Below, one piece after another: positions 41,150 to 45,083 of a DNA stretch of 64,000 nt. Under the pieces are notes generated by a model, which worked only from the letters and a program-made list of their open reading frames with translations, made no database searches and had not been told where the DNA came from. Source of the stretch: Narcine bancroftii (lineage: Eukaryota); NCBI RefSeq assembly GCF_036971445.1, contig NC_091471.1, positions 359,724,001 to 359,788,000 of the forward strand, given 5' to 3'. Both the position numbers and the translations under genes were made by a program. Within the stretch, counting starts at the first letter, position 1. Each line of letters begins with the position of its first letter.

Positions 41150-44100
41150 ATATCCCCTAATTCCTCTATCATGAAAAAATTTATCTAACCGAATTTTAAA
41201 TATGTTTAATGAAGCAGCCTCAACCACTTCCCTGGATAGAAAATTCCAAACATTCACTACTCTCTGGGAAAAACTATTTTTCCTCATCTCTGTCCTAAAT
41301 CTACTCCCCCGAATCTTGAGACTGTGTCCTCTCGTTTTAGTTTCCCCGGCCAGCTCAAAAATCTTCCTACATCTATCCTATCCATACCCTTCATAATCCT
41401 AGATGTTTCTATAAGATCTCCTCTCATTCTTCTGAACTCGAGCGAATTCAATCCTAGACGATTTAATCTTTCATCATAAGTCAACCCCTTCATCCCAGGG
41501 ATCAACCTAGTAAACCTCCTCTGGACTGTCTCCAAAGCCAGTATATCCCTGCTCAAGTATGGAGACCAGAACTGGACACAGTACTCCAGGTGCAGTCTCA
41601 CCAGTACCTTATACAGTTGCAACATGACCTCCCTACTCCTGAATTCAATTCCTCTAGCGATGAAGGCCAACATTCCATTTGCCTTCTTAATAACCTGCTG
41701 CACCTGCAACCTAACTTTTTGCGATTCATGCACAAGCACTCCCAAGTCCCTCTGCACAACAGCATGCTGTAGTTTTTCACCCTTTAAACAATATTCAGCT
41801 CTTTTATTTTTCTTTCCAAAGTGGATAACCTCACACTTACTAACATTGTACTCCATCTGCCAGATCTTTGCCCACTCATCCAGCTTTAGTATATCCCTCT
41901 GCAGACTCTCCACATCCTCATTACAATTTGCTCTTCCACTCAATTTGGTGTCATCCGCAAACTTGGCTACACCACATTTTGTCCCCTTCTCCAAGTCATC
42001 AATGTAAATGATGAACAGTTGTGGGCCTAACACCGACCCCTGCGGCACCCCACTTACCACTCTCTGCCAATCTGAAAAACTCCCATTTATCCCGACTCTC
42101 TGCCTCCTGTCAGACAACCAATTTTCAATCCAGGGCAATATACTTCCCCGGACTCCACTTTCCTGTAACTTACTGATAAGTCTCTTGTGCAGCACCTTAT
42201 CAAACGCTTTCTGGAAATCCAAATATACAACATCAACCTGTTCCCCTCTATCCACCGCACCCATTATATCCTCAAAGAATCCTAACAAGTTTGTCAAACA
42301 AGATCTTCCCTTTCTAAAACCATGCTACGTCTGCCTGATTGATCCCTTACGTTCCAAAAGTTTCACTATTTCATCTTTAATGACGGCTTCAAGCATTTTT
42401 CCAACTACAGACGTCAAGCTAATTGGCCGATAATTCTTCTGCCTACATCCCTTCTTAAAAAGTGACGTGACATTTGCTGTCTTCCAGTCTGCCGAGACCT
42501 GCCCGAAATCCAAGGAATTTTGGTATATGACCACCAATGCATCAACTATAAGTTCTGCCATTTCCTTCAGAACCCTTGGATGCATATCATCAGGACCAGG
42601 TGATTTGTCTGGCTTTAGTCCCATTAGTTTCTCCATCACTACTTCCTTTGTAACAACTATTTTATCAAGGCCCTCCCCAACATTCGCATCCTTAACTCCG
42701 CACTTGGGCATGCTGGACATGTCTTCCACCGTGAAGACTGACACAAAATATTTGTTTAATGCTTTGGCCATTTCCTCATTTTTTGCTACCAGTTTTCCTT
42801 TCTCATCCTCCAAAGGTTCTATGTTAACTCTGGCCACCCTCTTCCGTTTTATATATTTATAAAATTTTTTGCTTTCTGTTTTTATATTTTGTGGCAATTT
42901 ACTTTCATAATCCTTTTTCCCATTTCTTATTACTCGCTTTGTAACCCCTTGTTGTCTCTTAAAGTTTTCCCAATCTTCCAGTTTCCCACTGCTCTTTGCA
43001 GCTTTGTACACCTGCGCCTTCAATTTTATACTCTCCTTTATTTCCTTTGTTAACCACGGTTGATTTTTCCCTCCCTTGCTGCCCTTTTTCCTGACCGGAA
43101 TATATTTTTGTTGAGCATTACAAAATATTTCTTTGAAAATCTTCCACCGTTCCTCAACTGTTTCATCAATTAGCCTGTGCTCCCAGTCCACTCTGCCCAA
43201 TTCCTCCCTCATCCTATGGTAGTCACCCCTGTTTAAGTATAATATATTAGTTTTAGATCTAACTATTTCCCCTTCCATCTGAATGAGAAATTCAATCATA
43301 CTATGATCGCTATTTCCCAGATGGTCTCTGGCTATTACATCATTTACTCTACCTATCTCATTGCACAACACTAGATCCAGGAGAACATTTTCTCTTGTGG
43401 GTTCCTTAACATGCTGCTCAAGAAAGCTATCGCGGATGCATTCTATGAAGTCCTCTTCTAGACTCCCAATACCAACTTGATTTTCCCAATCTATGTGGAA
43501 GTTAAAGTCCCCCATGACTACTGCCATATCATTATTACATGCCTCATTTATCTCTCTATTTATTTCCTGTGCCACTAAACTATTGTTATATGGTGGGCGA
43601 TAGATAACACCCACCAATAATTTTTTCCCTTTGTTATTCTTTATCTCTACCCAAATGGACTCAACATTATGCTCTTTAGATCTTATATCATCCCTCACTA
43701 CTGCCTGGAGCTCATCTTTGATTAAGAGTGCAACTCCACCTCCCTTACCATCCTGTCTATCTCTTTGCACCACCTGATACCCTTAAAAGTTTAATTCCCA
43801 TTTAGGGTCACCTTGTAGCCATGTTTCCGTGATGGCTACCAAATCATAGGCATGGGTACCGATTTGCGCCTCAAGTTCACTAACCTTATTTCTAATACTG
43901 CGGGCATTCAGACAAAGTGCCCTTATGCTCTTTGTCCTTTTAATATCTAGTGACTTCTGTAACCTTTTCTTTTGATTTTTCTGCCCACTATTTTTATTTG
44001 TAATTTTCTTAACACTATCATTGTCCCGAAAACTCACTGCACCATCTGATTTTTTACTTTCTCCTCCCAACATTACTTTTCCTATTTTACTTTTCCTGGC

Positions 44101-44155
44101 CCTTACTTTATCTTCCCTACCTTTTTCCCTATCACTCTGGTTCCCATACCCCTGT
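41150..44155 (-). pseudogene. CR1 ORF2p: APE endonuclease plus reverse transcriptase
   Basis: APE motifs LNARSI, AITETW, GGGVAL, GVIYRPP, MGDFN and SDH. RT motifs KSPGPD, YRPISLTS, YLDFQKAFDKV, GVPQGSVLGP and FADDTKL. ORFs 43783..44073, 42325..43773 and 41284..42297 share one frame, separated by single stops. Frameshift near the C-terminus (~41360). Confidence 0.95.
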
Positions 44156-44159
44156 CAAA

Positions 44160-45083
44160 TTAGTTTAAACCTTGCCCCATTGCTGTACCAAACATACTTG
44201 CCAAAATGTTGACACCTTTTGGATTTAGGTGCAATCCGTCCCTCTTGTAAAGATCATGCCTTCCCCAAAAGAGATCCCAATGATCCAAGAAGCCAAATCC
44301 TTGCCTTGTACACCAGCACCTCAGCCACACGTTCATTTTCCTTATCCTTACATTCTTTTCATCACTTGGATTTGGAACAGGTAGTAATCCCGAGATCACC
44401 ACCCTCGGGTTCCTGTCTTTCAGCTTTCGTCCCAGCTCACTGTAATCCCTTTTCATTACCTCCTCCCTTTTCTTGTCAATGTCGTTTGTACCCACATGTA
44501 CCAACACACCAGGCTGCTCTCCCTCTCCTCTCAGAATATTTTGGACCCGATTTGTGATATCTCGTACCCTTGCACCAGGGAGGCAGCACACCATGCGGGT
44601 ATACTTATCTGGCTCACAGAACCTCCTGTCAGTACCCCTGACAATGGAGTCCCCAATAACTACTGCATTTCTCCTTTTCCTTTACTTTTGCACCATTCTG
44701 CCAGGCTCATTGCCATTGACCTGGTGCCCGTGGCCATCTTCTGTCCGGTCATCTACCTCAACAGAATCCAACACAACATAACTATTGCTGAGTGGGATAG
44801 TCACTGGTGTGCTCTCCTTTTTTCTCGCTTTTTTCTTTCCCCCCCTGATGGTTTCCCACCTTCCTGACACGGGTTCTGGAGTATTTATCGCCCTGAGTCG
44901 ATTAACTCCTCACTCTCCCTTGCAAGCCGCAGGTCATCAATCTGCAACTCCATATCCCTAATTCGCTCCCTTAGTAACTGCATCTCAGTACACCTGGTGC
45001 AGATGTGGCCATTTGGGAGGGTGGAGGTCACCCATTGTTCCCACATCTGACACCCAGTACAGACCACTAACCCTACTGGCATG
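44160..45083 (-). pseudogene. CR1 ORF1p: CxxC..CxxC zinc finger, coiled coil and SGNH/GDSL esterase domain
   Basis: CTGCQMW...ICTRC followed by heptad-like LLRERIRDMELQIDDL. SGNH blocks GDSIV (read in frame between 44682 and 44594), CLPGARV, VHVGTNDI and DGLHLN. One frameshift near 44885 and one premature TAA at 44682-44684. Ends GLN* at 44160. Confidence 0.93.

Follow-up and report, generated by a model that had tools for sequence, protein, structure and literature searches.

The junction between the two open reading frames of esterase-type CR1 LINEs probably works as a –1 programmed ribosomal frameshift site, giving an esterase-endonuclease-RT fusion. ORF1 of these elements ends in the heptamer U_UUA_AAC, placed in the slippery X_XXY_YYZ phase directly ahead of the stop codon, and ORF2 lies in the –1 frame.

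The junction was examined in a decayed, near-full-length CR1-type LINE of about 4.25 kb on the minus strand of the window, a 64,000-nucleotide stretch of the Narcine bancroftii genome (NC_091471.1, positions 359,724,001 to 359,788,000). As delimited by blastn, this copy spans 41027..45278 and is 92-96% identical to 8 longer family copies over 41027-45107 plus 45106-45278; compared with these longer copies, about 70 nt of its 5' UTR are gone near 45107, and it differs from the family majority by 81 substitutions in 4209 columns. ORF1 (44160..45082, minus strand; family length 309 aa) has a Cys-rich N-terminus and a C-terminal SGNH esterase domain (Pfam Lipase_GDSL_2, GDSL/SGNH, E 1.2e-14), and ends ...GQGLN-stop; a coiled coil is presumed in it from the family description. 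ORF2, counted from the heptamer (41123..44169, minus strand, with the end coordinate calculated rather than read), is 1017 codons long in the family majority and consists of an 85-codon Lys-rich linker, an APE endonuclease from about 43914 and an RT (Pfam Exo_endo_phos_2 and RVT_1). The 3' UTR of about 100 nt (41027..41122, minus strand), recognized by blastn and in the family majority, has short TTCCTA/TTCCTC-type repeats at its end. Rfam gave no match anywhere in the window. The putative assignment to CR1, as opposed to L2, rests on this architecture and on ORF1 relatives from turtle, lizard, ray and shark rather than on an RT tree; among named ORF1 relatives, the nearest are from rays and sharks. 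ORF1 has lost 7 nt near 44897 and has acquired a stop at 44684-44682; ORF2 is interrupted by more stops and deletions near 42436, 41362 and 41150. The window copy is a dead, broken example of the layout, with ORF1 broken upstream of the junction and a TGG>TGA change closing the –1 frame.

On the minus strand, ORF1 ends with the codons GGT (44171-69), TTA (44168-66), AAC (44165-63) and TAA (44162-60). Re-reading the sequence bore out the earlier, sequence-only reading, which had placed T_TTA_AAC at 44169-44163 in X_XXY_YYZ phase. The heptamer (44163..44169) is present in 30/30 nearest copies and in 12/12 group majorities; the stop directly 3' of it (44160..44162) is TAA here and TAA or TAG, never TGA, as a group majority. 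The –1 frame is the ORF2 frame, as had also been claimed: it reads FKLI*QGYGNQ... and, apart from a single TGA, continues through the ATG at 44073 into the CLNARS and TETW motifs, the next stop after the TGA being at 43785-83. The TGA (44155..44157, minus strand) had been explained as a lesion, and this was upheld by the 30 nearest copies, of which 27 have TGG, 2 have TGA (window copy included) and 1 has TTG; it is a copy-specific change of the family TGG (G>A at 44155). Across 9 copies, 5 of 162 Trp codon states have turned into TGA or TAG. A further substitution, T>G at 44102, has turned the first in-frame ATG of the family (44101..44103, minus strand; codon 23 from the heptamer) into AGG, so that the ATG at 44073 is the family's second. 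Upstream of it, in this sequence and in family copies, an out-of-frame ATG (44147-45) starts a mini-ORF of 14 codons (44103..44147, minus strand), which runs in the frame of ORF1 and whose TAA (44105-03) overlaps the first in-frame ATG of the family.

ORF1 ends NNT TTA AAC TAR in 12/12 CR1 groups resolved in the genome, although the groups are related by descent, E and M closely, and the counts are therefore not independent trials. Singletons and groups of fewer than 3 copies were left out, apart from L041 (group J) and L073 (group I). For four small groups of 4-6 copies, indels made the first majorities unusable; resampling resolved these groups as G, H, K and M. Among 83 loci, 9 had no recognizable site, owing to single-copy damage, deletions or chance motif matches. 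The Leu-Asn codons show no synonymous variation from one of the 12 groups to another, in agreement with the earlier proposal. The residue ahead of them is G, P, D or A, and the third base of its codon is always T. The third base is fixed in all three slip columns (T, A, C) in 10 groups, a comparison in which the heptamer itself is the end anchor (three other analyses of the junction used translation to find the ORF1 stop independently), and two further groups agree. By comparison, among 42 upstream ORF1 control columns, those with degenerate codons all vary at the third base, and only 1/26 control columns with a conserved residue, a Phe, uses a single codon.

It is scarcely credible that the junction contains no recoding signal and that the ending is kept by a protein need for a Leu-Asn C-terminus together with codon bias or shared descent. 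The groups are related and the Phe control column is likewise single-codon, as this would allow; but in the control columns Leu is written with 3 to 5 codons and the control Asn with both, the residue preceding Leu-Asn varies while its wobble base stays constant, and a Leu to Gly swap, described below, retains the heptamer pattern. In the whole genome (G000), the esterase motif DGLHLN is followed by an exact TTTAAAC-TAR in 4940 places, versus 167 places where Leu-Asn-stop has a non-T first base, and reversed-pattern controls gave 0; the heptamer-stop ending after DGLHLN is thus more frequent than chance. At the protein level, 75/122 esterase termini end in Leu-Asn, and in 1/75 of these the preceding residue lacks any T-ending codon (K, E, Q, M or W); one position earlier, these five residues have a share of 43%. 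Since 42/122 termini end in neither Leu-Asn nor Gly-Asn, the heptamer signal is not universal. Where it occurs, the nucleotides of the heptamer are conserved beyond what the protein needs.

Every group that could be resolved (12/12) has ORF2 in the –1 frame, a register on which the sequence-only reading depended. From the heptamer to the endonuclease motif this frame has 0 stops in 12/12 group majorities, with linkers of 47-85 codons and the motif at codons 48, 85, 54, 78, 47, 63, 68, 58, 67, 70, 52 and 47. In the six groups that were counted (375 codons), the –1 frame has 0 stops, against 26 in one of the remaining frames and 48 in the other. Among single copies of the old groups, the –1 frame is kept in 9/20 (H), 11/20 (J), 6/22 (K), 9/22 (M) and 3/25 (I), the frame of group I depending on a G-run of uncertain length, and the remaining copies fall in other frames. 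Joining of the frames at the RNA level is most improbable, whether through polymerase slippage that inserts an extra base into the heptamer or through splicing that either excises the stop or yields an RNA with ORF2 only. There are short T and A runs at the junction and an AG near the stop, but the runs measure just 3 nt, the groups have no conserved splice-site motif in common, and an added base would be copied into new insertions, whereas the heptamer is unaltered in all 30 nearest copies.

No AUG overlaps or adjoins the ORF1 stop in the ORF2 frame in any of the 12 groups, the earliest being at codon 15, and the first ATG past the stop is out of frame in 11/12. An in-frame linker ATG is found in 7/12 groups, including the window's family, at non-homologous positions (codons 15 to 55), and 5/12 groups have no in-frame ATG ahead of the first endonuclease motif. 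In group A, which has near-cognate CTG and GTG codons in frame, the first shared Met is codon 112, past a presumably catalytic Glu that corresponds in the alignment to residue 43 of the human L1 endonuclease. Reinitiation at a linker ATG, which in the window's family would involve a SART1-like stop-start TAATG (44105-44101) closing the mini-ORF, could serve as a second route in some families; as the general explanation it is very unlikely. Seven groups do have an in-frame linker ATG, and SART1 uses UAAUG (accessible parts of PMC3708506 and PMC10275272), but the TAA of the TAATG belongs to the mini-ORF and not to ORF1, the ATGs are neither homologous nor present in all groups, and the –1 frame is stop-free even ahead of them.

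Downstream of the heptamer, a G-tract (GG, G4-6, GGG) at +7 to +21 (44143..44156, minus strand) is kept in all groups, and is a candidate stimulator and/or a Gly-x-Gly linker in the –1 frame. Four G-runs noted earlier in the window copy are present at 44152-44149, 44145-44143, 44129-44127 and 44117-44115; the accompanying proposal of a G-rich stimulator is supported in part only, as no Watson-Crick structure follows and the first two runs alone are common to the families; the distal ones (44115..44129, minus strand) are family-specific, with one broken by a G>A change at 44122. A four-run quadruplex was therefore rejected as a general trigger. A hairpin stimulator was likewise rejected: no stem-loop is predicted 5-9 nt downstream in 11 copies, with folding z of –0.74 to +1.41 over 80 nt in a test that does not model pseudoknots directly. 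No shared long-range partner of the G-tract was found elsewhere in the element in 20 copies, the best matches lying at unrelated places. The 20-nt G4Hunter-type score reaches at least the 99th percentile of the element in 14/21 copies, in a tract that also encodes Gly-x-Gly, and a two-tier quadruplex at +7 appears in the predicted fold of 4/11. Upstream of the heptamer, a hairpin is predicted in groups C, D and J but does not recur at that position in groups A, B and E (a comparison made apart from G and H), and this candidate was also set aside.

Five esterase termini end in Gly-Asn, from which G_GGA_AAC was predicted before the DNA was looked at. Two loci, L210 (CAG GGA AAC TAG) and L211 (GCG GGA AAC TAG), both distant relatives, contain it in the same place as U_UUA_AAC, and they are the only two with G_GGA_AAC-UAG. 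In L210 the –1 frame is open for 502 codons with the endonuclease within, and the contig of L211 stops about 30 nt past the stop codon. L213, presumably a bird-type copy, has GCT TTA AAC TAG and retains the G-tract; among the six metagenome loci, L212 and L215 stop short of the junction, the heptamer of L214 is decayed, and the ORF2 frame is clean in neither L213 nor L214. Scans of viral contigs found no relatives, and scans of prokaryote genomes gave nothing useful, with one 506-nt contig that ends short of the junction.

The swap of one heptamer for the other bears on the main rival, AUG-independent termination-reinitiation as proposed for mammalian L1. Ribosomes would here restart close to the ORF1 stop, at a codon other than AUG in frame with ORF2; ORF2p would be a separate protein, with the heptamer and G-tract serving as the reinitiation signal. 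We regard this as unlikely. The available text of PMC5009743 considers initiation of an AUG-independent type probable for mammalian LINE ORF2, and such a mechanism would likewise maintain an open linker and put up with absent AUGs; group A has its in-frame CTG and GTG, and a canonical frameshift stimulator is absent. It nevertheless leaves unexplained the fixed –1 register in 12/12 groups and L210 and the X_XXY_YYZ pattern in ORF1 phase, and it offers no reason for one shifty heptamer to replace another with the wobble base following (T with TTA, G with GGA). Both heptamers are among the most shifty in mammalian ribosomes, being two of the four most shifty in the part of PMC5009743 consulted.

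In the –1 frameshift mechanism that we propose, most ribosomes would stop at the UAA or UAG and release ORF1p, while a minority, slipping one base backwards on U_UUA_AAC, would make the ORF1-ORF2 fusion, in the window's family a protein of about 1324 aa with the order esterase, linker, endonuclease, RT. We infer both the slip and its rate from the layout of the junction. The pause would come from the adjacent stop codon and the downstream G-tract rather than from a hairpin or pseudoknot, with the G-tract acting as a G-quadruplex or through a G-run-binding protein. It is conceivable, though we consider it doubtful, that esterase-type CR1s from rays and birds to distant relatives generally make a Gag-Pol-like –1 fusion with this G-tract (an RNA G-quadruplex or protein site) plus the stop as stimulator.

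Known viral –1 sites include the coronavirus U_UUA_AAC, the gag-pol junctions of retroviruses and LTR elements, and PEG10. CR1 resembles these in having an X_XXY_YYZ heptamer in the zero frame and a polymerase ORF in the –1 frame; it differs in its stop directly after the heptamer, in its non-LTR host, and in the lack of a predicted downstream stem-loop or pseudoknot. Natural G-quadruplex stimulators were anticipated, with none known, according to the sections available of a 2016 review (PMC5009743). The junction signal takes up about 30 nt, and its G-tract is a candidate for such a natural quadruplex or for a protein-bound stimulator. The elements described here match esterase-type CR1 (ORF1 type IVB, subgroup CR1_7) as given in the accessible portion of PMC4120745, with a Cys-rich N-terminus and SGNH esterase in ORF1, APE and RT in ORF2 and a short-repeat 3' end; that portion mentions neither ORF2 translation nor the word 'frameshift', whereas we describe a conserved heptamer-stop-G-tract junction. 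A literature search, within a reach that did not extend to the classic CR1 papers, found no –1 frameshift described for CR1.

If the frameshift reading is correct, a LINE group that is among the most abundant in vertebrates would set its ORF1p:ORF2p ratio in a retrovirus-like way, the RT would be tied to an esterase domain proposed to target membranes (PMC4120745, in part), and ORF2 models that begin at an internal ATG would miss the start of the endonuclease. Among APE-type non-LTR elements, Dictyostelium TRE5-A and TRE3-A need a –1 frameshift for ORF2 translation, as stated in a figure legend of one review (PMC5911963); they are of another lineage with another ORF1, and are likened to CR1 here by description only. 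The standing model for LINE ORF2 translation is reinitiation, and the accessible text of PMC3708506 describes the process as unclear. Like CR1, L1 and SART1 have a bicistronic LINE RNA with ORF2 past the ORF1 stop, and SART1, from what is available of PMC3708506 and PMC10275272, uses its stop-start together with a downstream structure. CR1 differs in that none of its groups has an AUG across the ORF1 stop and in that its two ORFs overlap, with ORF2 held at a constant –1 offset.

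The CR1 element in the window occupies 45278-41027 on the minus strand and shows 92-96% identity to eight longer copies, relative to which it has acquired 81 substitutions as well as several deletions. The copy is near-full-length and dead, and the genome measures 3.3 Gb. By Pfam, ORF1 is an SGNH esterase and ORF2 an endonuclease plus reverse transcriptase (RT), and the nearest named ORF1 relatives come from rays and sharks. ORF1 ends GGT TTA AAC TAA (minus strand), the slippery heptamer T_TTA_AAC occupying 44169-44163 and the stop codon 44162-44160, and the -1 frame runs FKLI*QGYGNQ and on through to CLNARS and TETW with one TGA only (44157-44155). 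The coordinates of heptamer, stop and singly interrupted -1 frame in the sequence-only reading were confirmed on the minus strand, and the four G-runs lie at the positions it gave. Its view of the TGA as a lesion was also borne out: in the 30 best copies of the window's family (its closest CR1 copies), all with an intact heptamer, the codon is TGG in 27, TGA in two (the window's copy and L004) and TTG in one. On this comparison the TGA is damage. Of the 81 substitutions in the window's copy, 20 are G>A, more than any other change, and across the nine copies compared 5 of the 162 Trp codon states have become stops.

A degenerate pattern for the esterase motif DGLHLN gave 7475 matches in the genome analysed (control, 372). 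After DGLHLN, exact TTTAAAC-TAR was found at 4940 sites versus 167 with Leu-Asn-stop and a different first base, the latter spread over families (among the matches listed, 100 of 167). The junctions were clustered and majority states taken for 12 groups, which are related by descent and so are not independent trials; the ORF1 end is NNT TTA AAC TAR in all 12 majorities. In the ten groups compared codon by codon, Leu-Asn is preceded by Gly, Pro, Asp or Ala, with a T-ending codon every time; control Leu columns use three to five codons, and a single codon was found in 1/26 conserved control columns and a fixed degenerate third base in 0/42. This comparison was anchored on the heptamer, and translation from DGLHLN independently gave identical ends. 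Comparison of junctions across the groups of this genome, close to a check suggested earlier, found the Leu-Asn codons invariant in the majority states (TTA AAC) rather than synonymously variable. Judged from these alignments, conservation of the ORF1 end acts at the DNA level; that protein constraint alone keeps it is a poor fit and extremely improbable.

Every one of the 12 majorities has its endonuclease motif in the -1 frame, 47 to 85 codons past the heptamer and with no stop between, and over 375 codons in the six groups counted the -1 frame holds no stops, the other frames 26 and 48. A consensus stop in the -1 frame, or an ORF2 off that frame in relatives, had been named as grounds against frameshifting; neither occurs in any group majority. 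Single copies are concordant in young groups (group G, 20/20 in the -1 frame) and split among frames in old groups because of indels (H 9/20, J 11/20, K 6/22, M 9/22, I 3/25), the frame of group I being uncertain. Joining of the two frames at the RNA level fits poorly and is highly improbable.

Five of the 12 groups (A, E, F, J, M) lack an in-frame ATG ahead of the first endonuclease motif. The first Met of group F falls inside that motif; in group A, whose copies agree at ~97%, codon 112 is the earliest Met they have in common, downstream of a Glu aligned to human L1 endonuclease residue 43 (E ~0.004), which we take to be catalytic. In 11/12 groups the first ATG past the stop does not lie in the ORF2 frame. 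Reinitiation at an AUG, perhaps a side route in some families, is therefore very unlikely as the general route. Taken alone, the window's family would allow reinitiation, since its codon 23 is an in-frame ATG (44103-44101; lost from the window's copy). In the same family, at 44147-44101 (minus strand), an out-of-frame ATG starts a 14-codon mini-ORF that closes on a TAA overlapping this in-frame ATG, as TAATG, and a second TAATG lies at 44075-44071; this arrangement was absent from the other groups inspected.

Among 213 related proteins, 122 have their terminus no more than 45 residues from the catalytic motif. Leu-Asn is the ending of 75 of these, including one turtle and one lizard protein. 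A residue without a T-ending codon stands just ahead of Leu-Asn in 1/75, versus 43% one position earlier. Other endings account for 42/122 termini, so not every esterase LINE uses the heptamer junction. Five proteins end in Gln-Gly-Asn; from these, CAG GGA AAC was predicted before any DNA was read. A metagenome scan gave six loci: L210 has CAG GGA AAC TAG and a 502-codon open -1 frame containing the endonuclease, L211 has GCG GGA AAC TAG close to the contig end, L213 has GCT TTA AAC TAG with the G-tract of other copies, L214 has a decayed site, and the remaining two stop short of the junction. The wobble base ahead of the site thus tracks the heptamer: it is T where the next codon is TTA and G where it is GGA. 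Passages of PMC5009743, in which CR1 is unmentioned, place both U_UUA_AAC and G_GGA_AAC among the most shifty heptamers. AUG-independent reinitiation would account for the open linker and absent AUGs but leaves the fixed register and the heptamer swap unexplained, and is an unlikely source of the ORF2 product. Separately, some distant ORF1 proteins (P0150, P0219 and others) end in Ser-Lys-Asn, which could reflect a candidate third heptamer, A_AAA_AAC, and a shark-type ORF1 esterase that a public database assigns to a bacterial species (P0018) is probably host contamination.

The junction is real, family-wide and under strong constraint. The heptamer layout is read directly from the sequences, from which we infer the slip itself; a -1 frameshift at the heptamer probably yields a fusion protein. 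The ribosome would pause with UUA in the P site and AAC in the A site, facing the stop and G-tract; the majority would terminate at the ORF1 stop, and some would shift into the -1 frame and produce a ~1324 aa fusion.

The 80 nt past the heptamer are no more stably folded than shuffled sequence (z from -0.74 to +1.41 in 11 copies), and a search of 20 copies for a common distant pairing partner found none. A G-tract is conserved in the genome's groups, L213, L210 and L211, its long run starting 9 to 13 nt and a second 16 to 21 nt downstream of the heptamer. Its 20-nt G4Hunter-type score is at or above the element's 99th percentile in 14/21 copies (lower, at percentile 96.8, in the window's copy), and a two-tier quadruplex predicted there would be marginal. 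Translated in the -1 frame the tract also gives Gly-x-Gly, so its possible RNA and peptide roles are inseparable here. Of the G-runs first described, the proximal tract is kept across groups and the two distal runs are confined to the window's family. Groups C, D and J (L190, L193, L283) have a predicted short hairpin ~15-35 nt ahead of the heptamer, which A and B do not share; the Phe codon at its site is TTT in 9/9 groups.

Full-text searches, which covered passages of PMC5006619, PMC10275272, PMC3708506, PMC4120745, PMC2734521 and PMC3905857, turned up no paper with a frameshift proposal for CR1; the original chicken, turtle and pufferfish descriptions may already mention the overlap. A passage of PMC5911963 attributes a -1 frameshift to the Dictyostelium elements TRE5-A and TRE3-A, so recoding of this kind has a precedent among non-LTR elements; if confirmed, the CR1 junction is a further form of this known mechanism.

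Other repeats were noted. A ~800 nt 3' fragment at 49095-49892 (plus strand) has 94-95% identity to CR1 copies of group C and terminates at a TGGTTATA 8-mer repeat. Two related repeat fragments (53135-54298 and 16356-16857) match the flanks of loci L202 and L303 at 91-97%, and the fragment at 53195-54298 (minus strand) contains a 367-codon frame with a weak RT match. A ~240-nt repeat, SINE-like in size (55631-55871 and 30309-30540), shows 96% identity to pieces that are inserted in L197 or lie next to L205, and a degenerate tandem array with periods of 44 and 132 nt spans 52161-52509. Two CR1 copies ~29 kb apart, L045 and L046, share an identical internal deletion fusing the linker to mid-ORF2, likely a local duplication.
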